Source: Flavipsychrobacter sp.
GTDB lineage: Bacteria > Bacteroidota > Bacteroidia > Chitinophagales > Chitinophagaceae
Reading direction: 5' to 3'
DNA length: 64,000 nt
Assembly: GCA_044224775.1 (NCBI GenBank)
Contig: JBGAJU010000004.1
Location: forward strand, 18,084-82,083
How positions within the stretch are numbered: position 1 is the first letter of the stretch; each line of letters starts with the position of its first letter. A program made the position numbers and the translations under genes. A model generated the notes under the pieces. It made no database searches and had not been told where the DNA came from. It was given only the letters and a program-made list of their open reading frames with translations. Positions 11,869-63,731 of the stretch are shown here, one piece after another.

Positions 11869-14415
11869 TTATCCTACGTTTGCTTCGCCTTCGATCTTTG
11901 CGGGCGAGTGGTGTATTGTGAAAACGATTTTGCTTTCCGCCTCATTATAGTCGGCTGTAACCAGGTCGCCGGCTTTAATGCGGTGGTTCAGTATCTCCTC
12001 GGCCAGCGGGTCCTCCAGGTACTTCTGGATGGCGCGGTGTAACGGACGGGCTCCAAACTGCTGGTCATATCCTTTCTCTGCAATGAACTTCTTAGCAGGA
12101 TCAGTAAGTTCCATAGTGAAACCAAGCGTATTGAGACGCTTCATCACATCCTTCATGATAATATCAATGATCATATTGATGTGCTTAGCTTCAAGCGAGT
12201 TGAAGATAACCACGTCGTCGATACGGTTCAGGAACTCAGGAGAGAACGTGCGCTTCAGCGCTTTCTCTATCACCCCACGGCTGGTATCTTCTGCATTAGC
12301 TGCTTTCGCAGAGGTTGCAAAGCCCACGCCTGTTCCGAAATCCTTCAACTGGCGTGCACCAATGTTGGATGTCATGATGATGAGCGTATTCTTGAAGTCC
12401 ACTTTCCTGCCCAAACCATCGGTCAACTGGCCATCGTCCAACACCTGTAAGAGGATATTGAAAATATCCGGGTGTGCTTTTTCGATCTCATCCAGCAGCA
12501 CCACAGAATATGGCTTGCGACGAACCTTCTCTGTAAGCTGACCGCCTTCTTCGTAACCTACATACCCGGGAGGCGCACCTATAAGACGGCTGAGCGAGAA
12601 TTTTTCCATGTATTCACTCATATCCACACGGATAAGGGCGTCCTCGCTGTCGAACATATAGCGTGCAAGCGCACGGGCCAATTCGGTTTTACCAACACCT
12701 GTAGGACCGAGGAATATGAACGAGCCTATTGGTTTGCGTGGGTCCTTCAGGCCCACCCTGTTACGCTGAATGGCCTTTACTATTTTGTGTATTGCATCGT
12801 CCTGGCCAACAACTGCACCTTTCAGGTCTTCGTCCATGCGGCGCAGTTTTTCACTTTCAGCCTCTACCATGCGCATTACCGGAATGCCAGTCATCATGCT
12901 GATCACCTCTGCTATTGCTTCTTCACTAATCGGATAGCGTTTGTGTTTCGCTTCCTCTTCCCATTCTGCTTTTGCGCGGTCCAGCTCCTCGCCCAGGCGT
13001 TTTTCACGGTCGCGGAGTGCTGCGGCTTCTTCAAAGCGCTGGCTCTTTACTACCTTATTTTTTTCCTGCTTAATGTCTTCTATCTTCTTTTCAAGATCGA
13101 GTATATTCTGCGGAACATTGATATTCTTGAGGTGTACCCGTGCGCCGGCTTCGTCCATCACGTCTATTGCTTTATCAGGTAGCAGACGATCGGTCATGTA
13201 ACGGTCGCTGAGTTTCACACAGGCTTCTATGGCATCTGCGTCGTAGATCACATTGTGGAAATCCTCGTATTTGGAGCGTATGTTGTTCAGTATTGTTATT
13301 GTTTCTTCCACACTTGGTGGCTCTACCAGCACTTTCTGGAAACGACGGTCTAACGCGCCATCTTTCTCGATGTACATGCGGTATTCATCCAGTGTGGACG
13401 CACCGATGCATTGGAGATCGCCACGGGCAAGGGCTGGTTTGAAGATATTGGAAGCATCGAGGGAGCCTGATGCACCACCCGCGCCTACAATAGTGTGTAT
13501 CTCGTCGATGAACAGGATAACATCACGGTTCTTTTCCAGCTCGTTCATGATCGCCTTCATACGCTCTTCGAACTGGCCACGGTACTTAGTGCCTGCAACC
13601 AATGCTGCGAGGTCAAGACTGATAACGCGCTTGTCGAACAATACGCGTGACACTTTGCGCTGAACGATACGTAAGGCAAGGCCTTCTACTATGGCGGTCT
13701 TACCTACGCCGGGTTCGCCTATCAATATCGGGTTATTCTTTTTGCGGCGTGATAGTATCTGCGATACACGCTCAATTTCTTCATCACGGCCTACAATAGG
13801 ATCCAGGCTGCCTAACTCGGCAAATTTGGTAATGTCGCGGCCAAAGTTGTCAAGAACAGGGGTTTTTGACTTGGTGTTGCCACCGGCTGGCTTACGCTGC
13901 TGCTGGAACTGACGACGCTCATCGTCTTCATCAAATTCTTCAGAACCCGGGTCGCTGTAATCTGCTGTAGGGTTATTGCCCTGCAGGATGCTCAATTCGT
14001 TCTTAAAACGGTCGTAATCAACTTCATGATTGTTGAGTATCTGCGTAGCCACGTTTTCTTTATTCTTCAAAATAGACAACATAAGGTGCTCCGTCTCAAC
14101 GGTTGTACTTTTCAGGGCCTTCGCCTCAAGAACAGTTATGCGTATCACTTTTTCGGCCTGCTTGGTTAGCGGCAGGCTGTTGATATTAGCCAAAGGCTTA
14201 TTGTTCTTGTCCTTTATAGCGACCTCCAGCTCCTTGCGCAGCTCAAAAAGATCTACCTGCATTGTTTGCAGCACTTTAAGTGCCATTCCATCTCCTTCGC
14301 GGATGAGGCCCAGCAGCAAGTGCTCTGTGCCTATAAAATCATTCCCCAACCTCAACGCCTCCTCCCTACTGTAGGATATGATCTCCTTTACCTTTGGCGA
14401 GAAATTCGAATCCAT
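11869..14415 (-). CDS. clpC: ATP-dependent Clp protease ATP-binding subunit, ClpC type
   Basis: Clp_N repeats ([20 protein letters not shown]). Walker A motifs GEPGVGKT and GPTGVGKT. A short UVR-like linker ([15 protein letters not shown]). I prefer the ATG at 14415 (MDSNFSPKV...); the 33 codons upstream look non-homologous. Confidence 0.9.
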
Positions 14416-16834: not shown

Positions 16835-18775
16835 ATGAAAAAAAGAGCAAAGCAAAACCTTGCACAAAGGACAATCCAGATAAATAAACCACCGGAAAAA
16901 ACTACCGCTACCCAAACGGGGATTTCATACCTGATGAAATTGTGCCTCTTTCTGGGAGTATTGTCTTTTGTGGTTTATGGGAATACCTTGAAGAATGGAT
17001 ATGCCGGCGATGATGAACTCTTTATTACGAATCATAGCCTAGTGAACAAGGGTTTGAAGGGCATTCCAGAATTATTGACCTCTTCTCGCATGAATGGCAT
17101 CCAAATTGACAATAACGACACCTATCGTCCCATCTCATTGGTCATGTTCGCTGTTGAAAAAGAATTATTTGGTTTTAATCCCACAGTCGGGCATCTTATT
17201 AATATCCTATTATTTTCTGCATGTGTCATACTGATTTTTTTATTCTTCGATAGATTGATGTTGGGGGAAAAAACGCCCGTGGCTTTTGTTGCGGCATTAC
17301 TTTTTGCTATGCACCCTATACATACAGAGGTTGTAGCCAATATAAAGAGCCGGGATGAGTTGTTATGTTTTTTCTTTGCTTTTTTATCACTTAACTTATT
17401 CATCTCTTATTTTTCAACCGGGAAAAATAATCGGCTGATAATTGGCTTAATAGCTTTTTTGTTATCGCTCCTTTCGAAAGAAACTTCCCTTTCTTTTATC
17501 ATTGTCATCCCACTAATTTTCTTCGCTTATCTTACCGGTGATAAGAAACGAAGTATTACGGTAACTGCAGTTTCTGTGATTGCTATTGCTGTGTTCTTGG
17601 GTATTCGTGTCTTAATCCTGGGAATACCGTCAGCGAATAATGCTCTATCTGCATCTGCCGATAACCAACTGGCAAGTGTTCCGTCTGGGGCTTCAGGCCT
17701 TGCCACTGCAATTTACGCATACGGATACTATGTTAAATTGCTGTTTATTCCTTATCCCTTACTTTTTACCTATTCTTTTTCGACGATCCCCTTCGTTAGT
17801 TTTAGTGACATAGGTGTTTGGAGTTCGCTCTTGGCTTACCTATGCTTAGTTATTATTGGGATTTATAGGCTTATTAAATTTAAGAAGGACTTTTGGGCTT
17901 TTGGCATTTTGTTCTTCCTTATTACTATCGCTCTTTTTTCAAATGTTCTTTTTCATCTACCTGCGCTCTTAGCAGAGCGCTTTTTGTTTTTTGCTTCTGT
18001 TGGATTCTGTTTATTAATGGCCCTTTTTATAGAAAAATGGTTTTTCAGAATACAAAAACCGGGAAATACAGCGAAAGACATATCTATTCTTTTAAAAACA
18101 AGGGTGTTGTTTTTATTGGTGATAGTTACATGTGTTTGGGGGTATATAACGATGGCGCGAAACAAGGACTGGGAAAATGACTATATTCTGAACAAAACAG
18201 ACATTGAGAAAGCTCCAAACAATATGCGGTTGCACTATAATATAGGTGTTGTATTGACCAATAATCTTAATAATGAAGATCTGAACCGTGATACAAAAGT
18301 CCGCATGGTCGAAGAAGGTATAAAAAGTTTTCAAAAAGCAATTGCTATATATCCAGGCTTTGCTGATGCACATTCGGGTTTAGCTCAGCTATACAATATC
18401 AAAAAAATGTTCGACTCTGCTGAGCTACATGCAAAAACAGCTTTGATTCTTGATTCATCGAATGTAATTGGATTGGATGTACTGGGCAATATTTACTTTA
18501 ACGCAAACAAATTTTCAGAGGCAATTTCCGTATTTGAGCAGGAAATGAAAATAAATCGCGGCTTGCGTGGAAAGTACCAGAATATCGGTACCTGTTATCT
18601 ACGCATGTTCAAATACGATTCTGCTGTGGCAAACTTTAAAAGGGAGTTATCCACTGCACCAGATAATCCTATAATTCTTTACGATGCTCTTGCTCAATCA
18701 TTTAGGGAAATGGGTTATATCGACTCTGCAAAAAGGTACGAGCAACTGATAAAAGAATTAGAACGCGCTGATTAA
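16835..18775 (+). CDS. Polytopic membrane protein with C-terminal TPR repeats (TMTC/PMT-like, possible GT-C glycosyltransferase)
   Basis: About 10 TM helices in the first 440 aa. TPR-like repeats follow (AIAIYPGFADAHSGLAQLY..., ALILDSSNVIGLDVLGNIY...). Strikingly low GC. Confidence 0.6.
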   Translation: MKKRAKQNLAQRTIQINKPPEKTTATQTGISYLMKLCLFLGVLSFVVYGNTLKNGYAGDDELFITNHSLVNKGLKGIPELLTSSRMNGIQIDNNDTYRPISLVMFAVEKELFGFNPTVGHLINILLFSACVILIFLFFDRLMLGEKTPVAFVAALLFAMHPIHTEVVANIKSRDELLCFFFAFLSLNLFISYFSTGKNNRLIIGLIAFLLSLLSKETSLSFIIVIPLIFFAYLTGDKKRSITVTAVSVIAIAVFLGIRVLILGIPSANNALSASADNQLASVPSGASGLATAIYAYGYYVKLLFIPYPLLFTYSFSTIPFVSFSDIGVWSSLLAYLCLVIIGIYRLIKFKKDFWAFGILFFLITIALFSNVLFHLPALLAERFLFFASVGFCLLMALFIEKWFFRIQKPGNTAKDISILLKTRVLFLLVIVTCVWGYITMARNKDWENDYILNKTDIEKAPNNMRLHYNIGVVLTNNLNNEDLNRDTKVRMVEEGIKSFQKAIAIYPGFADAHSGLAQLYNIKKMFDSAELHAKTALILDSSNVIGLDVLGNIYFNANKFSEAISVFEQEMKINRGLRGKYQNIGTCYLRMFKYDSAVANFKRELSTAPDNPIILYDALAQSFREMGYIDSAKRYEQLIKELERAD

Positions 18776-45161: not shown

Positions 45162-46052
45162 TTACAACTGTTTGCTCAGGTCTTTCCAGTTATAGTTGGC
45201 CGGCTGCCATTTTTTACCTGACATAATACCTGATATATGCCTGTTGCTGTAAAATACCAGTTTCTCCTGCATCAGGTTTTCCATTTGTACCAGTGCACTG
45301 TAATGTACCAGCTCTTGCCAACTCTTATCTTTAAAATGATGAAAGAATGAAGAGAGTACGCTGCCCGCCTCTTTCATATTCCAATAGTGGAAAATGTACG
45401 GCGCGGCTGCTTTTATATCATCCGTATCCTGGAAGTAAACGGAGAATGCAAATTGCTCTACCACATGTTTCGGGAATTTAGGATATTCCCTGTCTGTAAA
45501 TGCGAGCACTTCGTCCAGCAGCTGCTTATGCTGTGTGTTGAAACCCAGTACACCGGCATTCCACATAGCCATTTCATTTAGTGGTCTGCCATTTTGTTGT
45601 AGTTGGGCTCCTTCCAGATAATTGTTCAGCTTTCGCAATACCGGGTTTACCTTATCACTCACCTTACTCTCCCGTATGTGCATGTACAATTTGCCTGCGT
45701 CTATATCTGCAAATATTTTTTCTATGCGGTGTGTGAATACTACATCCGTATCCACATACAGAATGTTACCTGTTTTGCTGCTTGTAAGGTCTTTAAGTAT
45801 CTCTATCTTCACCCGGTGCACAAAGTCAATAGAGCCACGCCATTTTTTAATAGTTGCATCGTCAACTGTCCTGTAGTTAAGTGCCAGCGTGCAATTCAGT
45901 GCTCTGAACCATTCCGGATTATCTGTGTATATCCAGATATCTTTGTTCTTCAGTTCATCTGTATGATACAACCGGCAAAGGGATAACAGTGCGTAAGCAC
46001 ACTCATGAAAAACCCTTTCATGACCATAACACAGAAAAACAATGTAGTTCAT
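45162..46052 (-). CDS. Hypothetical GT-A-fold (GT8-like) nucleotide-sugar transferase
   Basis: DxD-type motif ILYVDTDVVF and WNAGVLGF, reminiscent of GT8 enzymes. Its start is 2 nt after the hutH stop. Confidence 0.45.
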   Translation of the reverse strand: MNYIVFLCYGHERVFHECAYALLSLCRLYHTDELKNKDIWIYTDNPEWFRALNCTLALNYRTVDDATIKKWRGSIDFVHRVKIEILKDLTSSKTGNILYVDTDVVFTHRIEKIFADIDAGKLYMHIRESKVSDKVNPVLRKLNNYLEGAQLQQNGRPLNEMAMWNAGVLGFNTQHKQLLDEVLAFTDREYPKFPKHVVEQFAFSVYFQDTDDIKAAAPYIFHYWNMKEAGSVLSSFFHHFKDKSWQELVHYSALVQMENLMQEKLVFYSNRHISGIMSGKKWQPANYNWKDLSKQL

Positions 46053-46054
46053 AC

Positions 46055-47527
46055 CTACAGCACAGGTGGTTGATTATTCAAAAACTTTTCTGCAGCTATC
46101 AGCTTATCGTGCAGCACTTCGTCCTCTGCCATGAAGGATGCTTCTTTACGTAGCGCATTATATACTCCTTCCAATACCTGAGAAGACTTATGCGGCCGCC
46201 TCAACTCCAGCGCCTGTGCAGCAGTAAGCAACTCTATTGCCAGCACGCGCTGCACATTCTTTATCACCTGTCTCAGTTTTGTTGCGGCATTAGCGCCCAT
46301 GCTCACGTGGTCTTCCTGGCCGTTACTGCTCACAATACTATCCACCGATGCCGGTGTGCATAATTGTTTGTTCTGGCTCACTATAGCAGCGGCTGTATAT
46401 TGCGCTATCATAAAACCACTATTCAAACCTGCATTGGGTGCCAGGAATGGCTGCAGTCCACGTTGCCCGCTCACTAATAAATAAGTTCTGCGTTCCGATA
46501 TGTTTGCCAGCTCTGCCATAGCTATTGCCAAAAAGTCGGCATGCAGCGCCAGTGTTTGCCCGTGAAAATTGCCACCACTCATTATCTCGCCCTCATCATG
46601 GAACACTATCGGGTTATCTGTCACAGAATTAATTTCTGTTTCCACTATCCTGTTCACCGTATCTACCACATCTTTTGTTGCGCCATGCACCTGCGGCATG
46701 CAGCGGAACGAATACGGATCCTGCACCTGCGACTTATGTAGTTTCTGTATCTCGCTGCCTTTTAATAATTCCAATATCCTTGCTGCAGTGTCTATCTGTC
46801 CTTTATGCGGGCGCACACGGTGTATGGGTGATTTGAAAGGTTCATCCTTCGCCATAAATGCATCTGCCGATAATGCCCCTATCACATCTGCCCACACCTG
46901 CAATCTTTTTGCTTCCACCAGGCTCCATGTCATATATGAGCTCATGAACTGAGTTCCATTTAGCAATGCAAGGCCTTCTTTGGCAGCCAGCGTCATTGGT
47001 TTCAACCCTTCACGCTGGAATGCTACTGATGCCGCAACTCTCTCTCCTTTATAATTCACTTCACCTTTACCCAATATCGGCAGGCACAAATGCGCCAGCG
47101 GCGCCAGGTCTCCGGAAGCACCAAGCGAGCCTAGTTCATACACCACAGGCAATATGCCAAGATTATAAAAGTCAATAAGCCGTTGCACTATCTCGGGGCG
47201 CACACCGCTGTAACCCTGACTCAGACCATGCACTTTCAGCAACAGCATCAGCCGCACAATTTCCTGTGGCACTTCATTGCCCATGCCGCAAGCATGCGAG
47301 CATACCAGGTTTTCCTGTAGTTGTTCCAGCTCATGGTCTTCAACGCGCACATTACAAAGCGAGCCAAAACCGGTATTGATGCCGTAGTATGTTTTACCCC
47401 CCTTCAGTAAGTTATCGAGGTATTGCCTGTTGTGTGTTATGCGGCCTATAGCCCCAACAGACAGATCGAAGTTGTCTTCCTGCTTGCAGCTAAAAAAATC
47501 AATGGATAAATGCTCCGGTAATTCCAT
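46055..47527 (-). CDS. hutH: Histidine ammonia-lyase
   Basis: MIO-forming triad in GSLGASGDLAPLAHL. YGINTGFG motif. Ser-His selectivity pair in NLVCSHACGMG, which is HAL type rather than TAL/PAL type. Confidence 0.85.
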   Translation of the reverse strand: MELPEHLSIDFFSCKQEDNFDLSVGAIGRITHNRQYLDNLLKGGKTYYGINTGFGSLCNVRVEDHELEQLQENLVCSHACGMGNEVPQEIVRLMLLLKVHGLSQGYSGVRPEIVQRLIDFYNLGILPVVYELGSLGASGDLAPLAHLCLPILGKGEVNYKGERVAASVAFQREGLKPMTLAAKEGLALLNGTQFMSSYMTWSLVEAKRLQVWADVIGALSADAFMAKDEPFKSPIHRVRPHKGQIDTAARILELLKGSEIQKLHKSQVQDPYSFRCMPQVHGATKDVVDTVNRIVETEINSVTDNPIVFHDEGEIMSGGNFHGQTLALHADFLAIAMAELANISERRTYLLVSGQRGLQPFLAPNAGLNSGFMIAQYTAAAIVSQNKQLCTPASVDSIVSSNGQEDHVSMGANAATKLRQVIKNVQRVLAIELLTAAQALELRRPHKSSQVLEGVYNALRKEASFMAEDEVLHDKLIAAEKFLNNQPPVL

Positions 47528-47568
47528 GTGGCAAAAATAGTTATTTCGCTCTAACCTCGGGAACGCAA

Positions 47569-48087
47569 TCAGCGTCCCACTATCTTCAGCAGATCCCCCT
47601 CTACGCTTTTCTTCACAGTTTCTGTAATGCGGCCTTTCTCGTTGCCGGATTTGTCCAGCACTATAATGGTGGGCAGGTTGGCAATGTTATATTTCTTCAC
47701 ATCGCCGCTTCGGGTCTCTTTTTTGCGCTCCACGCCATACATCTCTATCTGGTGCACCGGGTAGTTTATCTCGCGCAGCACTTTAAAGAATTTCGGCAGC
47801 ATATCGTGCGTATCGCTGCACCACGTACCCATAAATACTACCAGCTTATAATTATCGGTAGTAAGGCGCTCTTTTAAATTTTTTATTTTTTTCGCCTTGG
47901 GGGTATAGCCATCTATACCTGCCTCCAGCCAGTTGAATGACGGCTCCCTTGTCAGCGACAAATAAGTTACAGGCCCCCTGAAGACCAGTTGGCCGTTCTT
48001 CGGGTCTTTCGAAACATCTGTCTCCTCCGTTTGCGCTATTGCGCCAACCGAAAACAATACCAGTAAAAAGATCGAAAAAAATTTCAT
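47569..48087 (-). CDS. Thioredoxin-fold (TlpA-like) secreted protein with a CxxT motif in place of CxxC
   Basis: Signal peptide MKFFSIFLLVLFSVGAIAQ. Motif FMGTWCSDTHDMLPKF at the position of WCxxC. ATG at 48087 preferred over 48132. Confidence 0.65.
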   Translation of the reverse strand: MKFFSIFLLVLFSVGAIAQTEETDVSKDPKNGQLVFRGPVTYLSLTREPSFNWLEAGIDGYTPKAKKIKNLKERLTTDNYKLVVFMGTWCSDTHDMLPKFFKVLREINYPVHQIEMYGVERKKETRSGDVKKYNIANLPTIIVLDKSGNEKGRITETVKKSVEGDLLKIVGR

Positions 48088-48131
48088 GACATCTTTCACA
48101 TTACCCCACATTCCATCACATTGCTTCCACA

Positions 48132-48695
48132 TTATGCCAGTTGGTTTTTGATAATAACCAGTTTGTTGCGCAGTTGCAACAGCGATTGTTTCAGATCTAT
48201 CGTTTCCACATCGCGTTTGTTCTGCGTTTTCAGTTTTGCTTTGGCGCCGGTTAGCGTAAACCCACGTTCCTTCACCAGGTGGTGTATCGCTCGCAGTTCC
48301 CGTATTTGTTCCGGTGTGTATAATCGGTCGCCTTTGCGTGTGGTGCGCACTTTCAGCTTGAACTCATTGGTCCAGAAGCGTATATGCGATGTCTTCACTT
48401 TGAACAATGTTGCCACCTCCCCTATCGAATAGTATTGCTTATCGCCCTTCCAATCGTCAGGCAGCTCAAACTTTTTTTCCTCCGGTGTAATTGCAACTTG
48501 CGGTGCTTCTTCTGCAACAGGCACAGGCTGAACTTCCACCACCGGTTCCACCTTCGGCTGCTCAACAACTTCTTCAGCAGGTGTCTTTTCCTCGGGCTTT
48601 GGTTCTTCTTTCTTCTTTGCACGGCTTTTCCCCACAGCTTTCTGCTGCTCAGGCACTATCTCTTCCCCAAAAAGCGTAAAAATACGTTCAGCCAT
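48132..48695 (-). CDS. MerR-family HTH protein with a Pro/Glu/Lys-rich N-terminal region
   Basis: C-terminal half YYSIGEVATLFKVKTSHIRFWTNEF...GDRLYTPEQIRELRAIHHLV matches the MerR HTH pattern. The N-terminal 90 aa are low-complexity. Confidence 0.75.
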   Translation of the reverse strand: MAERIFTLFGEEIVPEQQKAVGKSRAKKKEEPKPEEKTPAEEVVEQPKVEPVVEVQPVPVAEEAPQVAITPEEKKFELPDDWKGDKQYYSIGEVATLFKVKTSHIRFWTNEFKLKVRTTRKGDRLYTPEQIRELRAIHHLVKERGFTLTGAKAKLKTQNKRDVETIDLKQSLLQLRNKLVIIKNQLA

Positions 48696-48774
48696 TTCTT
48701 ACAAGTTACAAAATACTTTACAACTTAGGCATTCCTGCTGCAAAGTTGCATTTTTTTTAGCATTTCTTCTACGC

Positions 48775-48806
48775 AAAAGCGCCACACAATGTGTGGCGCT
48801 TTTTTC
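48775..48806 (-). terminator. Hairpin terminator, potentially bidirectional
   Basis: Stem aaaagcgccacac / gtgtggcgctttt with a T-run on the + strand and TTTT on the - strand. It lies just downstream of the ppiD-like stop. Confidence 0.6.
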
Positions 48807-48824
48807 TTATGGTTCAAATGCTTT

Positions 48825-51020
48825 TTAGAAATTATCCGCGTTATACTCCACCTCTGCTTTCTTCGTCATGGTCTGTTGCATCATCTGGGTTATAGAGTTC
48901 CTCAGCTGCCCCTCCAGCTGACCGCGCTGCTGTGGCAATATTGCATTCATAATGTTTGCATCAATATTGCCAATGTTGCGGGTCAATACGGTAATAAAGT
49001 AAACACCACCCTGCCCTTTTATACCTGCAGATACAGTGTTCGGCTGAAAGCCTGCGTTAAATGCATAACCAACAACCTTTGGCTCATAGCCCAGGCCGTT
49101 TATATATGCTGCGGCAAGCGTCATAGAATCAGCCTGGCCAACTGTTTGCCCTGATGCAGATGCTATACCATCCAAAGAACCCTGCCCGCCAAACTTCTTA
49201 ATAATCGCGTCAGCTTTTTTCTCATCCCTCACTTTCATTTCCAGCATGGGGCGGTTTGCTGCCGTCAAAGCTGGTAAACCTTTAGCTTGTACCGTTGCTA
49301 TCTTCGCAACCACATAGCGCTGGTCGCCCAGTTGGAACACAGAAGATACATCACCCACATTGCCTTTGTATACCCAACGAACTATTTCCCTTGAAGAGCC
49401 CAGGCCGTTAATGCTGAAGTTGTTTACTTTAATATTGTCGCCAACCCTTTTATCCAGACCTTGTTTTTTCACAGCCTCGTCAAACGCAGCTGATGTATTA
49501 TTTTTTCCTGCAAACTCGTTTGCTGTACCGTATATAGCTTTGTCCGTGCTGTCGCTTGGTGCCAGTATTTTAGCAATAGTACCCAGCTGCAACGATGGCG
49601 CCACACCTTTGTGGTCCATAATAACTATATAGTGGTATCCTGCATAGTTGTCGTTGCTCACGCTAACTGTTTTGCTCTCACCGGGTTTTCCTTCAAATAT
49701 AAAGTCGCCGAATTCTTTAGAGATGGTCGGGCGCTGCTGCAATGTAAACCAATACTCACCACCTTTGTCTTTGCTGCCCTGGTCTTCAGAGTAAATATTA
49801 ACTACAGAGTCGAATTTCGCGCCGCTGTTTATCAAAGCGATTGCGCTGTCTATCCTCTTCTTTGCTGCCGAGTCAGACAATATTTCCTGTCCGCGCTCTT
49901 TTGTGCGCACCAATATGTGTTTGCACTGTACTGAGTCCGGTAAGGTTTTCCTGTCAATTACTTTTGTCAGCCTGTATGAGCCGCTCTCGTAGTATGGGCC
50001 ATAAACTTCACCAACAGGCAGTGTCATGATCGTATCTGCAAACCTAGACATGAATGTCCTCTTATTCATATAAGCTTCAGAGAAAGCATTCACCTCGTCC
50101 GATTTACTGTTCACGAAGGTCTTGTTGTCTTTTGCAGCTGCAAAGTCGGCTTTTATTTCATTTAAAGCATCTACCTGCCGTGCAGTATCAGCAACTGCGG
50201 GAATGATATCGAATGATACATATTCTATGGTGCGTGTCTCCTGGTCTGTTTCATACTGCGCAGCATGCTTTTGCATGTAGGCTTTTATTTCCTCGTCAGT
50301 TACTTTAGCATCATTATCAGGTATAACAGAATATGGGATCTTCACATACCTGATAGCCGCCTGGCTGTTCTGCTCGTTCACATATTTCTTAGCCATAAAA
50401 GATGGTACATAAACAGAACCGGCAAACAACGAGTTGAATTTGTTTACCCTTGCCATGCGCTTCACATAAGACTTAACGGTCTCCCACTGCTCAATGATCT
50501 TTCCTCCCGATGGGTCTTGTGTAGGATCTTCAGCCATTGTCTTTTCAAATTGTTTGATGGCACCGGGGTCAAACTGTTGTGTTTGCGGGTTAACAAATAT
50601 AGGCTGGCCACCATATTGGAACTGCCTAACCAGCGGATCAGCATTTTCGCCGTAGGTCATTTCTTTTATTTCGTCGGCAGAAACTACTATGCCTAATTTA
50701 TCGCACTGCTCGTTCACCAGTTTTTCATAAACGATCATTTGCAGCACCTGCTCATTCATTTGAGAACGGGTTGCATCGTCAAGCGGGTTGTTCTTGTTGA
50801 ACATTGCATACAAGGTCTCATACTCTTTCACATGCTCCTGGTATTCCTTTGGGTCAACTTTGTCTCCGTTAACTTTTAATACTGTATTATCATTACTCTG
50901 GAAAAAATTTCCAAAAGAACCATTACGGGCATCCGATATGATAAATCCAACTAGCGCCAGGGCAATAAGTGCTCCGGCAATTTTGCCATACTTATTCCTG
51001 ATTGTTTGTATTACAGACAT
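48825..51020 (-). CDS. PpiD/SurA-like periplasmic chaperone (peptidyl-prolyl isomerase domain protein)
   Basis: N-terminal anchor MSVIQTIRNKYGKIAGALIALALVGFII. Central parvulin-like region (KHILV...). 731 aa. Confidence 0.8.
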   Translation of the reverse strand: MSVIQTIRNKYGKIAGALIALALVGFIISDARNGSFGNFFQSNDNTVLKVNGDKVDPKEYQEHVKEYETLYAMFNKNNPLDDATRSQMNEQVLQMIVYEKLVNEQCDKLGIVVSADEIKEMTYGENADPLVRQFQYGGQPIFVNPQTQQFDPGAIKQFEKTMAEDPTQDPSGGKIIEQWETVKSYVKRMARVNKFNSLFAGSVYVPSFMAKKYVNEQNSQAAIRYVKIPYSVIPDNDAKVTDEEIKAYMQKHAAQYETDQETRTIEYVSFDIIPAVADTARQVDALNEIKADFAAAKDNKTFVNSKSDEVNAFSEAYMNKRTFMSRFADTIMTLPVGEVYGPYYESGSYRLTKVIDRKTLPDSVQCKHILVRTKERGQEILSDSAAKKRIDSAIALINSGAKFDSVVNIYSEDQGSKDKGGEYWFTLQQRPTISKEFGDFIFEGKPGESKTVSVSNDNYAGYHYIVIMDHKGVAPSLQLGTIAKILAPSDSTDKAIYGTANEFAGKNNTSAAFDEAVKKQGLDKRVGDNIKVNNFSINGLGSSREIVRWVYKGNVGDVSSVFQLGDQRYVVAKIATVQAKGLPALTAANRPMLEMKVRDEKKADAIIKKFGGQGSLDGIASASGQTVGQADSMTLAAAYINGLGYEPKVVGYAFNAGFQPNTVSAGIKGQGGVYFITVLTRNIGNIDANIMNAILPQQRGQLEGQLRNSITQMMQQTMTKKAEVEYNADNF

Positions 51021-51055
51021 TGTAGGTTTGTGTTATGTTTAAATATTAAGGACGG

Positions 51056-51063
51056 CAAATTTA
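51056..51063 (-). promoter_or_regulatory. Candidate -7 promoter box for the ppiD-like gene
   Basis: The reverse complement reads TAAATTTG, 35 nt upstream of the ATG at 51020. Confidence 0.3.
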
Positions 51064-51777
51064 TGGGAAAAAATGAGATTTTGTAGCCTTACTCCTGTAT
51101 TTAAGACCTTTATTTTTAAATATAAAACTTCATATTATCTGCTTTCTTCTATTTATTGCTGGCGGTATTTTTTGCATGTGTTTTTTGTGTTGGTAAGCCG
51201 TTAGTTACCTCTTAATTCACAACTATTGTTAGCATCTCTATAAATATTAGTGTATTAATGGTGAAATATGTGTATATCTATATGAGTTATTACCATTCCA
51301 AGCCTTTTTTATTGGTAAATCATGTCATTTTGTTGAAATGTTGTGTAGTACGGATGTATTATAACAAATAATTACTGTGCGTTGAAGCCTCATTAAAACA
51401 GAATATTTTTTGCTAATGCGTTGATTTTGTCTTGTTATTACTCGCGCAGGTCGGAAAAATTTTTTTGAAGCTATTTTTCAAAGGACTGCCTGTGGATATG
51501 TCATGATTTCTACTGGAAAACAAGTCCATTATTTATCATAACTAATTAATAATCTTGTGAATTACGAAGTTGTTAGCTTTTTGCCGCGTTTTTTCACAGC
51601 CATCTACGAAATTCAGATTCCTGATTTTACCCACACTTCATTTAATTCACAATCCACACTATAACTGTTAGTTGTGTGTCTTTTCTGCTTTTTATAATAG
51701 TGTTTGTGCTTTGTAGGGTGTGAATAAACTTAGTTTCTCATTTTTGCAAGGAGAATAACTTTTTTCTTTCCTCGTTT

Positions 51778-51841
51778 CCACACTCCTAATAATAGTAGAT
51801 TTAGTTTTTTAAAAAATAAAATAGAATTATTAGGAGTGTGG
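51778..51841. repeat. Perfect 16-bp inverted repeat flanking a 32-nt tract of almost pure A/T
   Basis: Left arm ccacactcctaataat (51778-51793). Right arm attattaggagtgtgg (51826-51841). Confidence 0.9.
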
Positions 51842-51905
51842 GTAAGTTAGTTTTAAGGGTTTGTGAAAGATGTTTGCCATCATGTTTGAGGAAATGGTAT
51901 TTGAG

Positions 51906-51913
51906 TACCTTTG
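51906..51913 (+). promoter_or_regulatory. Candidate -7 promoter box for nadA
   Basis: TACCTTTG ends 9 nt before the ATG at 51923, which implies a very short leader. Confidence 0.25.
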
Positions 51914-51922
51914 TTGTTCGTT

Positions 51923-52918
51923 ATGCAGTTGAGTAAAATAAATGAAGTTGGTTTTCTTGATGTGGCCATTGACCCGTCTTTGGATATTTTTGAAGAGATA
52001 GAGAAACTGAAGAAGGAGAAGAAAGCGATCATACTCGCTCACTATTACCAGGAGCCCGACATACAGGACGTTGCAGATTATATTGGCGATAGTTTAGGAT
52101 TAGCACAAAAAGCTGAAAGCACGGATGCTGAGGTTATAGTATTTGCCGGTGTGCATTTTATGGCTGAAACAGCTAAAATACTGAATCCACATAAGAAAGT
52201 ATTGTTGCCTGATCTTAAAGCCGGTTGCTCATTAAGTGATAGTTGCCCGCCGGCTATGTTTAAAGTGTTCAAAGAAAAACATCCTGATCATTTGGTAATT
52301 TCATACATAAATTGTTCGGCAGGTATTAAAGCATTAAGTGATATTATCTGCACATCATCAAATGCACAATTGATAGTTGAAAGTTTACCTAAAGAACAGA
52401 AAATAATTTTTGCGCCAGACAAGAACCTCGGAGGTTACATAAACAAGAAGACCGGTCGGAATATGCTTCTATGGAATGGAGCATGTATGGTACACGAGAT
52501 TTTTTCATTAGAGAAAATAACAAAATTAAAGCTTCGTCATCCTGATGCAAAGTTGATAGCTCATCCCGAGTGTGAAGATGCTGTTCTGCAGATCGCTGAT
52601 TTTATAGGTTCAACTACGCAGTTGCTTAAATACACTGAAAAAAGTAAGGATAGTATTTTTATTGTTGCAACAGAAGCAGGCATACTACATAAAATGCGGC
52701 AAAATGCACCGGGTAAAACATTCATAGCAGCTCCTCCAGATAATGCATGCGCATGTAATGATTGTCCGCATATGAAGCTAAATACATTGGAAAAATTGTA
52801 TTTATGCATGAAATATGAGCAACCGGAGATCCTGATGGATGAAGAGCTGAGACTAGCCGCAAAAAAGCCGATAGACAGGATGCTCGATCTGAGCAAAAAA
52901 CTGGGTTTAAAAGCATAG
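51923..52918 (+). CDS. nadA: Quinolinate synthase NadA
   Basis: [30 protein letters not shown], and cluster Cys residues ([25 protein letters not shown]). ATG at 51923 preferred over TTG at 51911. Confidence 0.9.
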
Positions 52919-55999: not shown

Positions 56000-56007
56000 T
56001 ACCTTTG
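56000..56007 (+). promoter_or_regulatory. Candidate -7 promoter box for mnmG
   Basis: TACCTTTG ends 6 nt before the ATG at 56014. This is the same octamer as the one in front of nadA. Confidence 0.25.
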
Positions 56008-58339: not shown

Positions 58340-58377
58340 AAACTTTTCTATATCTTTGAATAAACAATCCTGCAATT

Positions 58378-58764
58378 ATGGTGCAACAGGTTACTGAGGG
58401 CGTAAGCATAATGGTGGAAACGTTCTACCAGCCCGCTCACTCCAACCCCGTAAATTCCGAATACCTTTTTGCGTATCGCATCACTATCGAAAATCTTTCT
58501 GCGCACCCGGTAAAGTTGCTTAGCCGCCATTGGCATATTGTTGATAGCAACGGCACACATCGCGAAGTTGAAGGCGATGGTGTTGTTGGCCAGCAGCCGG
58601 TAGTATCTCCTGGCGATAGCTATCAATACACATCCGCATGTAATCTTAACAGCGATATCGGAAAGATGTATGGCACATACCTGATGGAAAATTTGTTTCA
58701 CAAAAGGAAGATAACCGTTGCCATTCCAGAGTTCCAGCTCATAGCCCCCGCAAAGCTGAATTAA
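58378..58764 (+). CDS. apaG: ApaG (DUF525) protein
   Basis: FAYRITIEN.....VKLLSRHWHIVDSNG..REVEGDGVVGQQPV..PG..Y.YTS is the ApaG signature. Confidence 0.85.
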   Translation: MVQQVTEGVSIMVETFYQPAHSNPVNSEYLFAYRITIENLSAHPVKLLSRHWHIVDSNGTHREVEGDGVVGQQPVVSPGDSYQYTSACNLNSDIGKMYGTYLMENLFHKRKITVAIPEFQLIAPAKLN

Positions 58765-58867
58765 GAAACAAAAAAATAAACCGATGTCATGGTGAGCCTG
58801 TCGAACCATTGCTTATGACTTGCACAATCTCTGAGAAAAGGACTTGGTTTTTAAAACGCTCTTTCAT

Positions 58868-60572: not shown

Positions 60573-61985
60573 ATGCACAAGAAAATTATATTGTTATTTG
60601 CAGCCCTTGGCTGTCTGGCTTTTGGTGCTCAGGCGCAGCACTACTTAGGTTTGGCAACCGGTGAATACAGCGCTATCAACAGCCTCTACCTCAACCCGGC
60701 AAGTATATCGGGTGCAAAAGAGAAGATAGTAGTGAATCTTTTGTCTATGAACTTCTCGGTCGACAATAGTCTTGGCACCTTCAGCAAGCTGGGCGATATC
60801 GGCAAGAATAATACCGAAGCATTTAACTTGTCCGGCAAAAGAGACCAACCTTTCAGCATGGCGGTACCGGCGCTGGAACTGCGCTTACCTGCAATATTAG
60901 TTAGCCTCAATGATAAGCACCAACAAAGCTTTGCGTTGACCACACGTGTAAGGGCAATGAACCAGTTCAACCATTTTGATCCTTCACTGTATCAGAATAT
61001 CGTATCAGATGAGTATATAGATCAGGACTACCGTTTCACCACAACCAACTTCAATTGGACCGTGCATGCATGGAGCGAGATAGGCCTCAGCTATGCCTTG
61101 AAGGTATTTGACAAAGGCCCGCATAAACTGAGAGCAGGCATAACTTTGCGCTACCTGGGCGGTGTAAAATATCTTGGTCTCAAAGGCCGCAATTTTGATG
61201 CAGCCTATAAAAAAGGAAGCGATACGGTGTTTGCATCCAATTCCGACATTTCATTTGCGAGCAACGCTGTTAAGTCCGATGATGTTTTTTCCAACGGCGT
61301 CACCGGCGATGCAGTGCTTAGCTCACTATTTGGCGCAAAATCGGGTAGTGGTTTTGGTATGGATATCGGGGTTTCTTATACTTATCAATTGGATGGCGAT
61401 GATTTGTCAGACGACGATAATAGCGATGGGCGACGCATAACCGTCTCAGCGGCCGTTAGGGATATTGGTGCCATAAAATACAGGCAAGGTGAGAACTTTG
61501 TGGTGAACGTGACCGGCAATGGTTACCTCACCGGGCAGGGACTGGAAGATAAGCTGGGCAGCTATGAAGAATTCAGGAATTATGTGAAGTCCCAGGGCTT
61601 TACCGTTGATACAGGTTCTTTTGCCACAAAAGTCTACATGCCAACAACAATGGTGCTTGGTGCAGACTATCAAATAGTTAAACACATAGCAATAAATGCT
61701 ACGTTTATAGGCAATCTTGCCAACCGGCAGAATTATGGCAACTCTTACTACAGTCGCCTCACGTTTACTCCTCGTTTCGAGAACAAATTCTTTACCGTTG
61801 CCTTGCCCATAGGCTATAGTTGGCTGGCTAAGGATATAAAATTGGGTCTGGGCTTTCGCATAGCAGGCTTCTTCTTTGGTAGCGACGACATGCTGGCGGT
61901 GCTGAGCAGCAACCAACACGGCATGGGTTTTTATATGGGCGGCTATGTGCCCATATTCAAGAAGGCTAAAAAGAATAGATTTTAA
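60573..61985 (+). CDS. Uncharacterised outer-membrane beta-barrel protein, paralog 1 (possibly the DUF5723 family)
   Basis: Signal peptide ending AQAQ. N-terminal LGLATGEYSAINSLYLNPASI. Beta-rich sequence ending in ...KKNRF. Clearly homologous to the next gene. Confidence 0.6.
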   Translation: MHKKIILLFAALGCLAFGAQAQHYLGLATGEYSAINSLYLNPASISGAKEKIVVNLLSMNFSVDNSLGTFSKLGDIGKNNTEAFNLSGKRDQPFSMAVPALELRLPAILVSLNDKHQQSFALTTRVRAMNQFNHFDPSLYQNIVSDEYIDQDYRFTTTNFNWTVHAWSEIGLSYALKVFDKGPHKLRAGITLRYLGGVKYLGLKGRNFDAAYKKGSDTVFASNSDISFASNAVKSDDVFSNGVTGDAVLSSLFGAKSGSGFGMDIGVSYTYQLDGDDLSDDDNSDGRRITVSAAVRDIGAIKYRQGENFVVNVTGNGYLTGQGLEDKLGSYEEFRNYVKSQGFTVDTGSFATKVYMPTTMVLGADYQIVKHIAINATFIGNLANRQNYGNSYYSRLTFTPRFENKFFTVALPIGYSWLAKDIKLGLGFRIAGFFFGSDDMLAVLSSNQHGMGFYMGGYVPIFKKAKKNRF

Positions 61986-62072: not shown

Positions 62073-63731
62073 ATGAAAAGATCGTTATACACGCTTGCCA
62101 TACTTAGTTTGTTTTCGGGTGCGGCAAAAGCACAATATAATTTAGGTGTAGCAACAAGTAATTGGAGCGGCCTGAACAGCCTCTACCTTAACCCCGCAAA
62201 TATTGCGGACAGCAGGCATCGGCTGGCAATAGACATTGTTGGCATAAATGCCGGTGTTGATAATAACCTCGGTACGCTCAATACCAACGGTGGGATATTT
62301 GACCTTGTGAATGATGGAAATAGCAACAATATATTTAAGTACGGTAACAACAATACCTTTAGTCTGCTTGCACCATATGTGCATTTCCGCTTGCCCGGAG
62401 TAATGGTGAGCATTAACAGCCGCCACAGTGTAGCGTTGACAGCAGGTATACGCGGCATGAACCAGTTCAACAATTTCGATCGTTCATTATACCGTACGCT
62501 TACCGAAACAGATTATGCTCCTGAAGGCAATGTGGATCTGACATCAAGAATGTTCAATTACACAGCGCACGTTTGGAGCGAGATAGCAGGCTCTTATGGA
62601 GCAGTTGTTGTTGATGAATTTCAACACAAACTAAAGGTTGGTGTTACATTGCGTTATCTTGGCGGCATTGGTTACATTGGTTTGCGTGGCAACAACCTTG
62701 ATGCACATTATAAAGGCGGCGATAATGATACACTGTTCGTAACAAAGTCTGACCTTGAGTTTGCGAGCAATGCCATCAGTACAAGAAGCGCCGTGGTTAA
62801 TGGCATTTCTAACCACAACATTTTTGACGATTTCTTTGGTTCTAAAGATGGTCATGGATTTGGTGGTGATATAGGTGTGGTTTATGAATTCAATCCAAAC
62901 CCCACCGAACATGCAGATTACCACAATGCTAAAAAGGGCCGCAGGAATAATGCTAAGAATAACTACCTTCTGCGCGCTTCGGCAGCAATAGTAGACATTG
63001 GCTCTATAAAATACAGTCGCGATAACAACTCGAATGCACGTGTAACAGGTGATGGAGTTGTAGTGGGCAATGATTTTGAAAGCAAAGTGAGCAACTATGA
63101 GACCTTCAGGGAGTATGCTGTATCACATGGTTTCACCGCAGATTCATTCCACAGGGATACAAGGGTATATATGCCAACAAGACTGAACATGGCAGTAGAT
63201 GTGCGTGTTTACAAACGCATATACGTTAATGCGATGTTTGTTGCCAACCTTGCTAACCGCCAAAACTTTGGCAACTCTTATTACAACCAACTGACCGTAA
63301 CACCACGTTACGATTCAAAATTGTTCAGTGTAGGTATGCCTGTCACATATGGTATATTGTCTAACACCGTGAAAATGGGTGTTGGTATAAGGTTCAGCGG
63401 ATTCTATATCGGTAGCGATGATATGTTGGCGCTTGTTGCTGGTAACCAATCAGGTGCAAACGTTTATGTAGGTGGATTTATTCCATTAAACAAACGAGCT
63501 CCGAAAGAACATTATCATCGTGATGATGAAGACACTTCCGGTGTTGAGATAGAGCCAGACTACGATCATGGTGGCAGCAATGACGAAGATGATGCTGATC
63601 GTTCCAGGTCAAACAGACGTGGCGGTGGAAATCCAGAAGAAAAGTCTTCTCCCCGAGACAGGGACGAAATGAACAATTCTTTTTCAGGCCGCAAAGAAGA
63701 GATGAACAGGGAGATCGAAAAAAAAGATTAA
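62073..63731 (+). CDS. Uncharacterised outer-membrane beta-barrel protein, paralog 2, with a charged disordered C-terminal tail of about 75 aa
   Basis: Shares NSLYLNPANI, RLPGVMVSIN..H..ALT.G.RGMNQFNNFD.SLY, LRYLGG.GY.GL.G.N.DA and ANLANRQNFGNSYY with paralog 1. The tail is HYHRDDEDTSGVEIEPDYDHGGSNDEDDADRSRSNRRGGG... Confidence 0.6.
   Translation: MKRSLYTLAILSLFSGAAKAQYNLGVATSNWSGLNSLYLNPANIADSRHRLAIDIVGINAGVDNNLGTLNTNGGIFDLVNDGNSNNIFKYGNNNTFSLLAPYVHFRLPGVMVSINSRHSVALTAGIRGMNQFNNFDRSLYRTLTETDYAPEGNVDLTSRMFNYTAHVWSEIAGSYGAVVVDEFQHKLKVGVTLRYLGGIGYIGLRGNNLDAHYKGGDNDTLFVTKSDLEFASNAISTRSAVVNGISNHNIFDDFFGSKDGHGFGGDIGVVYEFNPNPTEHADYHNAKKGRRNNAKNNYLLRASAAIVDIGSIKYSRDNNSNARVTGDGVVVGNDFESKVSNYETFREYAVSHGFTADSFHRDTRVYMPTRLNMAVDVRVYKRIYVNAMFVANLANRQNFGNSYYNQLTVTPRYDSKLFSVGMPVTYGILSNTVKMGVGIRFSGFYIGSDDMLALVAGNQSGANVYVGGFIPLNKRAPKEHYHRDDEDTSGVEIEPDYDHGGSNDEDDADRSRSNRRGGGNPEEKSSPRDRDEMNNSFSGRKEEMNREIEKKD

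Follow-up and report, generated by a model that had tools for sequence, protein, structure and literature searches.

A gene-free gap beside nadA as a probable DnaA-dependent chromosomal replication origin in a Chitinophagaceae bacterium

The window analysed here is a 64-kb stretch of a Chitinophagaceae genome, and its largest inter-ORF gap, at positions 51021–51922, lies between a ppiD-like gene and nadA. An initial annotation had proposed this gap, described as about 0.9 kb between two divergent genes, as a candidate chromosomal origin of replication (oriC). Its coordinates were reproduced, giving a length of 902 bp with a G+C content of 277/902 (30.7%), and its hand counts of 18/60 G+C at 51301–51360 and 13/60 at 51781–51840 proved exact. 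Two small ORFs lie inside the gap, one of 43 aa on the plus strand and one of 70 aa on the minus strand that overlaps the start of nadA; the latter is the single shadow ORF of at least 60 aa already recognised. A search for tRNA genes found none, and a scan of the gap for sigma-70 and terminator consensus sequences gave no more sites than were found in shuffles. The features of the locus, in order of position, are as follows.

48825–51020, minus strand: ppiD-like periplasmic chaperone gene, left flank, with SurA_N and rotamase domains
51021–51922, no strand: candidate oriC (whole gap), flanked by the ppiD-like gene and nadA and richer in DnaA boxes than any other 900-bp stretch of the window
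51188–51277, both strands: left group of weak box-like 9-mers with two mismatches each, TTACCAACA at 51188–51196 (minus), TAATTCACA at 51213–51221 (plus) and ATATACACA at 51269–51277 (minus)
51491–51499, minus strand: DnaA box ATATCCACA, one mismatch
51556–51598, both strands: two-mismatch boxes, TAATTCACA at 51556–51564 (minus) and TTTTTCACA at 51590–51598 (plus)
51627–51658, plus strand: three same-strand boxes, TTACCCACA at 51627–51635 (one mismatch), TAATTCACA at 51643–51651 and CAATCCACA at 51650–51658
51712–51728, minus strand: inverted-orientation box pair region TGTAGGGTGTGAATAAA, containing TTATTCACA at 51719–51727 (one mismatch)
51739–51746, plus strand: promoter-like element CATTTTTG, aligned with the family-conserved TAATTTTG (consensus TTTTAATTTTGCAA in alignment A1)
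51766–51782, plus strand: tandem DnaA boxes anchoring the unwinding module, CTTTCCTCG at 51766–51774 (four mismatches) and GTTTCCACA at 51774–51782 (two mismatches)
51778–51841, no strand: perfect 16-bp inverted repeat, CCACACTCCTAATAAT at 51778–51793 and ATTATTAGGAGTGTGG at 51826–51841, with a 32-nt A/T-rich loop
51783–51785, plus strand: G+C spacer CTC (CCC or GCC in relatives)
51786–51797, plus strand: DnaA-trio-like triplets CTA ATA ATA GTA, bottom strand 3'-GAT TAT TAT CAT-5'
51798–51827, no strand: AT core, the presumed DNA-unwinding element, with 3 G+C in 30 nt
51819–51845, minus strand: mirrored module, with box TTACCCACA at 51845–51837 (one mismatch), spacer CTC at 51836–51834 and CTA ATA ATT CTA TTT at 51833–51819
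51923–52918, plus strand: nadA (quinolinate synthase), right flank, ATG at 51923 (NadA match, E = 7.5e-140)

Gene orientation changes at the gap. The five consecutive minus-strand genes reported on the left (45162–51020) are all present, and on the right 9 of the 10 verifiable genes lie on the plus strand, rather than the 10 of 11 originally counted; apaG (58378–58764, plus strand) is a real gene, and the minus-strand ORF overlapping it was rejected. Several housekeeping genes surround the gap (mnmG, recX, murB, mutL, a ClpB-like gene and pdxJ), and such neighbours were counted in favour of a chromosomal origin. The gene mnmG does lie about 4 kb to the right, with its start at 56005, 4.1 kb from the gap, but as an argument for an origin this is weak, since nadA, an M36 peptidase gene and a small minus-strand gene intervene and the side and orientation of mnmG relative to nadA vary among relatives.

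The gap contains four DnaA boxes with no more than one mismatch and 12 with no more than two, and is the densest 900-bp stretch of boxes in the 64 kb. The four one-mismatch boxes first noted, at 51491 (minus), 51627 (plus), 51719 (minus) and 51837 (minus), were all recovered in place and on the same strands, as were the five two-mismatch boxes; three further two-mismatch boxes were found at 51188 (minus), 51269 (minus) and 51590 (plus). The perfect box TTATCCACA is absent from the gap. Against the four observed, the expected number of boxes with at most one mismatch is 0.27 if the shuffle rate of the whole window is used (19.33 per 64 kb) and 0.34 if the gap alone is dinucleotide-shuffled 2000 times; a rough figure of about 0.2 had been put forward at the outset. 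Four or more were reached in 1 of the 2000 shuffles. For boxes with at most two mismatches the shuffle mean was 3.9 (sd 1.9), and 12 or more were seen in 0 of 2000. The cluster is thus beyond chance and lies in non-coding DNA, as is expected of an oriC.

The right end of the gap forms a complete module (51766–51827) in which DnaA boxes, spacer, DnaA-trios and AT core follow one another in order. A basal unwinding rule has been described in which a box with no more than two mismatches lies 0–16 bp from at least three consecutive 3'-NAN-5' trios, with a second tandem box of no more than four mismatches (Pelliciari et al. 2021, PMC8287927). In the window, GTTTCCACA, with two mismatches, ends at 51782 and the trios begin at 51786; four triplets are present, each keeping the middle adenine on the bottom strand. 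The second tandem box, CTTTCCTCG, is borderline with its four mismatches, and relatives have better boxes at the homologous site, the pair as a whole being homologous to their TTTCCACAAATTCACA. The AT-rich element stands next to the boxes, as in an oriC, and no 40-bp duplex in the 64 kb is less stable than the one beginning at 51790, at -37.6 kcal/mol compared with a window mean of -52.7 (sd 4.1). The element at 51739–51746, which lies upstream of the tandem boxes, is likely to be the nadA promoter, a prediction made from its sequence and conservation; we take it to resemble the Bacteroidota -7 promoter element TAnnTTTG. Its conserved position suggests that transcription of nadA may run through the unwinding region.

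The same module directly precedes nadA in 53 related Chitinophagaceae loci, at distances of 68–220 nt from the gene, and an equivalent module is present in Sphingobacteriaceae loci. A family profile built from 33 sequences (nhmmer) has one significant match in the window, at 51766–51829 (E = 1.6e-7, 27.5 bits). The gene order ppiD (minus), gap, nadA (plus) is kept in about 28 Chitinophagaceae loci, and the window shares both this order and the module sequence, with the module reading towards nadA. In a 17-sequence alignment (A1), which leaves out the left box group at 51188–51277, the conserved blocks coincide with the boxes, the trios and the AT core. The boxes at 51627–51658 coincide with the conserved blocks TTTTCCAC and TTATTAAC of the relatives, the region at 51712–51728 aligns to the family consensus TGTGGATnAnnGTGGATAA with columns G121 and A125 invariant, and the trio columns T188/A189, T191/A192 and T194/A195 are invariant in all 17 sequences. 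A lack of the box cluster in orthologous regions had been named in the initial annotation as a result that would count against an origin; the boxes instead occupy columns conserved across genera. On this sequence evidence nadA is a conserved neighbour of the predicted origin in the Chitinophagaceae lineage.

A comparison with DoriC, also proposed there, places the module at origins that have been predicted already. Unwinding 32-mers are listed for the DoriC origins ORI93020100 (Chitinophaga pinensis DSM 2588) and ORI95030423 (Niastella koreensis GR20-10) (PMC8287927, supplementary file 3); DoriC origin calls are computational predictions that use the whole-genome Z-curve, the test asked for in the initial annotation, here as carried out by DoriC on relatives. 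The two published strings match three of our loci (L019, L028 and L015) with 2/32 mismatches, and the matched modules in these congeners lie 86–101 nt upstream of nadA, so that the module is the published unwinding sequence of two Chitinophagaceae DoriC-predicted origins. The published string of Pedobacter heparinus is found within 280 nt of nadA in the Sphingobacteriaceae locus L062; for P. heparinus the published pick differs from the homologous module. The published strings of C. hutchinsonii, Dyadobacter fermentans and Sphingobacterium sp. 21 have no match among the compared loci or in the window. Our literature search found no explicit description of a nadA-linked origin in Bacteroidota, and a paper on Bacteroidota fitness landscapes (PMC13440311) makes no mention of an origin.

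With the C. pinensis and N. koreensis origins the window shares tandem boxes, a 3-nt G+C spacer, four nTA triplets and an AT core in the same order, as well as the ppiD/gap/nadA arrangement, and its module fits the family profile. It differs in the degenerate upstream tandem box, with four mismatches, and in its distal box, which is inverted and sits within the perfect 16-bp inverted repeat. In addition, the trios of the window are 137 nt from the nadA ATG, whereas most relatives have an AT core abutting the start codon.

Of the elements of the locus, only the inverted distal box holds out the prospect of a new insight. Read on the minus strand, the mirrored module at 51819–51845 is the second-best match to the family profile in the window (E = 0.12), and an inverted distal box is also present in L082 and in the Sphingobacteriaceae loci L055 and L062. 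As single-stranded DNA the repeat at 51778–51841 folds at -18 kcal/mol (z = -7.2). Most relatives are without the full repeat, yet keep a box at an equal distance beyond the AT core; in the Sphingobacteriaceae the distal box is inverted and there is no long stem. The nearest relatives available for this comparison have at best 81% NadA identity among genomes and 84% among metagenomes. One possible reading is that the window, L082 and apparently the Sphingobacteriaceae have a two-sided unwinding system, together with a promoter-like element of nadA that sends transcription through the unwinding element. Convergent box/CTC/nTA units (51774–51797, plus; 51845–51819, minus) would then flank a single AT core, DnaA filaments could form on each of the two strands, so that the bubble would open symmetrically and each helicase would have a loading platform of its own, and transcription through the unwinding element would tie origin opening to expression of an NAD-synthesis gene. 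We offer this idea tentatively and think it unlikely.

It is unlikely, too, that the repeat acts as a regulatory hairpin of the nadA leader RNA (an attenuator or a riboswitch-like element) with no role in an origin, an explanation that concerns the repeat only and is compatible with an oriC at this position. Its placement between the promoter-like element and the nadA ATG and its strong folding are what such a hairpin would have, but no Rfam family, the NAD+ riboswitch included, matched the window at gathering scores, and at E values up to 1 the gap gave just microRNA-hairpin look-alikes far below the thresholds. Moreover, no T-run follows the stem, and both arms of the repeat consist of a DnaA box, a spacer and trio-like triplets. 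The relatives also speak against a leader hairpin, in that most of them retain the distal box and lack the full repeat, and the inverted box of the Sphingobacteriaceae has no long stem.

Strand asymmetry was considered both within the window and across relatives. The minimum of the cumulative total G/C skew of the window falls near 51 kb, but this largely reflects gene orientation. The pooled top-strand skew at third codon positions is -0.136 on the left (28.7–51.1 kb) and -0.099 on the right (51.9–64 kb), with no change of sign at the gap, and the leftmost 28 kb have a positive skew, the wrong sign for DNA to the left of an origin. A single-breakpoint model fitted to the 64 kb (third-codon and all-position skew) placed its best break at about 28–35 kb with the wrong sign, and not at 51.5 kb, so that the window alone cannot show a skew switch. 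Between 28 and 64 kb the all-position term is b = +0.049 ± 0.015, and the GC3 side term, +0.059 ± 0.039, is positive and not significant. A regression pooled over all loci with a single orientation term gave b = 0.021 for the Chitinophagaceae, not different from the controls, and was replaced by a regression in which orientation was corrected per locus and nadA was excluded. In this final form the switch is b = +0.023 in the Chitinophagaceae (positive in 24/27 loci, p = 8e-5) and b = +0.044 in the Sphingobacteriaceae (positive in 9/10 loci, p = 0.001), and control nadA loci without the module show none (b = +0.007, p = 0.39). There is therefore a small but significant skew switch of the sign expected at an origin across the relatives, and it is absent from the controls.

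For the gap as a whole, the principal competing explanation is a DnaA-binding regulatory or titration locus, either a DnaA-controlled nadA/ppiD promoter or a site of the datA/DARS type, with the true origin elsewhere, for example beside dnaA. None of the scanned ORFs of the 64-kb window has a Bac_DnaA match, and there may be a second box cluster beside dnaA, outside the window. The unflipped third-codon skew of the window and the promoter-like element among the boxes would also suit such a locus, as would the relative L028, which has 18 phased DnaA boxes near nadA that are clearly not an origin. A regulatory or titration site would not, however, be expected to carry the full ordered module or to fall on the weakest duplex in 64 kb; in two complete genomes of the Chitinophagaceae, DoriC locates the origin at this module through whole-genome asymmetry, and the skew switch in relatives, absent from controls, has the sign of an origin. 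We therefore hold this explanation to be very unlikely. A reading of the gap as an ordinary divergent promoter region, AT-rich and with box-like 9-mers arising by chance, is scarcely credible and effectively refuted, for while AT-rich intergenic DNA makes TTAT/ACA-type words commoner and no perfect box is present, dinucleotide-preserving shuffles almost never reached the observed counts, the boxes lie in columns conserved across genera and the family profile match is highly significant.

The gap is thus most probably the DnaA-dependent chromosomal oriC of this Chitinophagaceae bacterium, orthologous to the nadA-adjacent origins predicted by DoriC in Chitinophaga and Niastella; we put the probability of this reading, made from sequence comparison, at roughly 0.85. 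It builds on what was observed directly, namely the elements and their order, the statistical excess of boxes, the conservation and the identity with published predicted origins. The oriC proposal of the initial annotation, which drew on the box cluster, the AT-rich composition, the flip in gene orientation and the proximity of mnmG, is hence supported, and much more strongly, by the unwinding module, family conservation, the match to published origins and the skew in relatives.

If the gap is an oriC, DnaA would bind about a dozen degenerate boxes across it, mainly in the conserved right-hand 260 bp (51590–51845). The tandem boxes at 51766–51782 may anchor a filament of ATP-DnaA, which would cross the CTC spacer onto the bottom-strand trios (51786–51797) and both stretch and melt the adjacent AT core at 51798–51827, within the weakest duplex region of the window. 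Loading of the replicative helicase would follow, with forks departing in both directions. The inverted box at 51837–51845 would close the far side of the bubble and could carry a further DnaA assembly, this one placed on the opposite strand.

The order and orientation of the elements are those of the Bacillus subtilis oriC, in which boxes 6 and 7 are followed by DnaA-trios and an AT-rich region (Richardson 2016, Pelliciari 2021). The middle adenine of each bottom-strand trio and the placing of the better box no more than 16 bp from the trios are likewise shared; against the B. subtilis trio consensus 3'-GAT-5', the window has GAT as its first triplet alone, followed by TAT, TAT and CAT. The B. 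subtilis module differs in lying between dnaA and dnaN and in having been tested experimentally, that of the window being known from sequence. Like the Escherichia coli oriC (mnmG/gidA–oriC–mioC), the gap is apart from dnaA and has mnmG in its neighbourhood, and flanking transcription may contribute to origin function in both. We know of no inverted distal box in the B. subtilis oriC. An E. coli-type mnmG-adjacent oriC does not describe the locus, however, as mnmG is not immediately beside the gap but 4.1 kb away beyond three genes, in a position that varies among relatives. Within the same phylum, the oriC of Cytophaga hutchinsonii is cited as experimentally confirmed, the DoriC prediction having been borne out by autonomously replicating oriC plasmids (Xu et al. 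2012, cited in PMC3531139). It is DnaA-box-rich, as is the gap, but its published unwinding string matches neither the window nor any locus compared.

The origin proposed here is of a kind already predicted computationally in related genomes, a sound but ordinary case, and it does not overturn current views of bacterial initiation. What it adds is a nadA-linked origin with a box/trio/AT-core module common to Chitinophagaceae and Sphingobacteriaceae loci. Defining the unwinding site by homology is, moreover, cleaner than searching single genomes for patterns, as the example of P. heparinus illustrates. Placing the origin would give the replichore layout of an uncultured or poorly studied Chitinophagaceae genome, and could be of use in estimating growth rates from metagenomic coverage, in orienting assemblies and in constructing oriC-based shuttle plasmids for a group in which genetic tools are scarce.

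The 902-bp gap at 51021-51922, gene-free and 30.7% G+C overall, is the largest inter-ORF gap of the window, and we regard it as the chromosomal replication origin, oriC, with a probability of roughly 85%. Its only ORFs are one of 43 aa and a 70-aa shadow ORF, in line with the initial annotation, whose hand counts of G+C in two segments of the gap (18/60 and 13/60) were exact on recount. The flanking genes are:

48825-51020, minus strand: ppiD-like chaperone gene with SurA_N and rotamase domains (left flank)
ATG at 51923, plus strand: nadA (NadA model, E = 7.5e-140; right flank)

The nearest NadA sequences come from Ferruginibacter and other Chitinophagaceae (identity up to 81% in genomes and 84% in metagenomes), and window proteins such as a T9SS-sorted M36 peptidase indicate Bacteroidota. 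The housekeeping genes around the gap (mnmG, recX, apaG, pdxJ, murB, mutL and a ClpB-like gene) identify the DNA as chromosomal. ApaG (DUF525, E = 1e-33) is encoded by the plus-strand ORF 58378-58764, which overlaps an opposite-strand ORF, 58348-58809 (minus); the latter, longer but without a family and with weak tblastn matches in three loci, was rejected as a gene and is considered a shadow. Adjacent plus-strand genes at 60573-61985 and 62073-63731 are apparently tandem DUF5723 paralogues (E = 2e-31 and 2.5e-32).

All nine DnaA boxes previously listed were found where they had been placed, and three further two-mismatch boxes bring the total in the gap to 12. This compares with 3.9 ± 1.9 expected for boxes with at most two mismatches, and 12 was reached in 0 of 2000 shuffles. 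For boxes with at most one mismatch, of which the gap has four, the expectation is 0.27 by the window-wide shuffle rate and 0.34 by dinucleotide shuffles of the gap, 1 in 2000 of which reached four or more. Nowhere else in the window do 900 bp hold boxes at this density. The box excess is real, and pure chance is excluded as its explanation.

An ordered module occupies the right end of the gap; towards nadA it reads:

51766-51774, plus strand: upstream tandem box, CTTTCCTCG, 4 mismatches
51774-51782, plus strand: proximal tandem box, GTTTCCACA, 2 mismatches
51783-51785, plus strand: spacer, CTC
51786-51797, plus strand: trio-like triplets, CTA ATA ATA GTA; bottom strand 3'-GAT TAT TAT CAT-5'
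51798-51827: AT core, 3 G+C in 30 nt

The published search rule for basal unwinding systems specifies a box with at most two mismatches, no more than 16 bp from at least three central-adenine trios, and also a second tandem box with at most four mismatches (Pelliciari et al. 2021, PMC8287927); the module at 51766-51827 has each of these elements. By nearest-neighbour energy, the least stable 40-bp duplex of the 64 kb starts at 51790 (-37.6 kcal/mol; mean over the window -52.7, sd 4.1).

The order ppiD (minus), gap, nadA (plus) is kept in about 28 Chitinophagaceae loci. The neighbouring mnmG, to which the initial annotation had drawn attention, does lie within 1-10 kb in relatives, but its side and strand vary. 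Most Chitinophagaceae and Sphingobacteriaceae loci (20 kb each) have their densest box cluster immediately before nadA; those of Saprospiraceae and Lewinellaceae do not. Besides the window, 53 loci (33 from genomes and 20 or more from metagenomes) have the ordered module, for example TTTCCACAAATTAACAC-CCC-TAATAGTAATAG and then an AT core, at 68-220 nt from nadA on its upstream side. In the window, a profile made from 33 of the modules has a single significant match, at 51766-51829 (plus strand, E = 1.6e-7); next best, at E = 0.12, is the mirrored copy described below. When 17 sequences were aligned, the conserved blocks fell on functional elements of the gap:

51627-51658: boxes
51712-51728: inverted box pair
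promoter-like TAATTTTG
tandem boxes
TA positions of the trios, invariant in the 17 sequences
AT core

The alignment consensus also holds TTTTAATTTTGCAA (window 51739-51746), a conserved element with the inverted box pair on one side and the tandem boxes on the other. It is similar to TAnnTTTG, the -7 promoter motif of Bacteroidota; should nadA be transcribed from it, boxes, trios and AT core would all be part of the nadA 5' leader.

Unwinding sequences inside DoriC-predicted origins, the predictions being based on whole-genome Z-curve, box distribution and neighbouring genes, have been published (supplementary file 3 of Pelliciari et al. 2021, PMC8287927). The top strands given for Chitinophaga pinensis DSM 2588, GTTTTCACATATTCACAGCCCTAATAGTAGTG, and Niastella koreensis GR20-10, TTATCCACTAATTCACAGCCGTAATAGTAATA (PMC8287927), differ at 2 of 32 bases from the modules that precede nadA in L019 and L028 (Chitinophaga) and in L015 (Niastella populi), and the Pedobacter heparinus string lies at most 280 nt from nadA in L062, a locus of strain S10_4.1. 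The comparison with DoriC suggested earlier, made here on relatives, supports the proposal; the gap is therefore orthologous to a class of origins that databases list as predicted. In L062, the published program's pick (9725-9754, opposite strand) is ~150 nt upstream of another module (TTATACACAGTATCCACACGCTAATAAACAATAG, about 9868-9905) laid out like that of Chitinophagaceae; homology with the latter suggests that the functional site may be a different one from the pick.

The main rival, which we consider improbable, is that the gap serves DnaA titration or regulation and the true origin lies elsewhere. The ORFs scanned in the 64-kb window encode no DnaA protein, and the flat third-codon skew also fits this rival. 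The skew minimum expected at an origin is present near 51 kb in the cumulative total skew of the window, but is largely a gene-orientation effect. Pooled top-strand third-codon (GC3) skews are:

0-28.5 kb: +0.056
28.7-51.1 kb: -0.136
51.9-64 kb: -0.099

A single-breakpoint model of the window did not choose 51.5 kb. Over 28-64 kb, the side term b of the skew regression has the origin sign (positive), significantly so for all positions (+0.049 ± 0.015) and not significantly for third positions (+0.059 ± 0.039). GC3 skew changes sign near 28.6 kb, at the divergent mutL/NHL-repeat-protein junction, being positive to the left and negative between 28.8 kb and the gap. For DNA left of an origin, the positive skew of the first 28 kb is of the wrong sign; it may be the trace of a past inversion or of DNA acquisition.

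Skew side term b at nadA loci, with orientation corrected per locus and nadA left out
Chitinophagaceae: all positions +0.023, b > 0 in 24/27 loci, p = 8e-5; GC3 +0.034, p = 0.011
Sphingobacteriaceae: all positions +0.044, b > 0 in 9/10 loci, p = 0.001; GC3 +0.083, p = 0.003
Control nadA loci without the module: all positions +0.007, b > 0 in 8/15 loci, p = 0.39; GC3 +0.003, p = 0.87

Compared with the controls, then, skew at the nadA gap switches in the manner of an origin in this lineage, with a small amplitude in Chitinophagaceae. A titration or regulatory site would leave this family-wide switch, the full unwinding module and the DoriC placement in relatives unaccounted for.

A titration function may be seen beside nadA in L028 (MAG Chitinophaga sp., NZ_JAFAIX010000012.1), where 11976-13016 holds 18 boxes with at most one mismatch, five of them perfect, on one strand. 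They lie downstream of nadA by 1-3 kb, within 5.6 kb of ORF-poor DNA that separates it from mnmG, and are spaced by 61-63 bp, about six helical turns, with two gaps of 52. Similarity between repeat units is only 65-82%, which leaves the box as the conserved part, and the whole may be a datA-like titration array adjoining the origin. Among 160 loci such an 18-box array occurs in L028 only; L037 has a smaller one (six boxes, 18152-18606).

In most Chitinophagaceae the AT core adjoins the nadA ATG, and an extra box-like 9-mer in direct orientation (GATATTAACA, GATATCCACC or GTTATGAACA) lies 40-44 nt past the trios, overlapping the start codon in one of two registers (loci L002, L006, L011, L015, L016, L022 and others). 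Part of the sequence thus belongs both to the origin and to the start of nadA, and the use of two registers points to a DNA-level constraint. In the window the distal box is inverted (TTACCCACA, minus strand, 51837-51845) at an equivalent distance (+38), and has its own CTC spacer and then nTA triplets on the minus strand. It is part of a perfect 16-bp inverted repeat (51778-51793/51826-51841) which, as single-stranded DNA, folds at -18 kcal/mol (z = -7.2); no Rfam family accounts for the 51778-51841 hairpin, and no terminator-like T-run follows it. The mirrored layout is also present in L082, and of the inspected Sphingobacteriaceae modules, those in L055 and L062 have a terminal inverted box about 100 nt before nadA; it is thus a recurring variant, not unique to the window.

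From the observed presence, order and conservation of these elements we infer how an origin here would work. DnaA would occupy the degenerate boxes, the tandem boxes would seed a filament onto the bottom-strand trios, this filament would melt the AT core, and helicases would be loaded after melting. The sole element that is potentially instructive is a possible two-sided unwinding module, with nadA transcription possibly passing through it.
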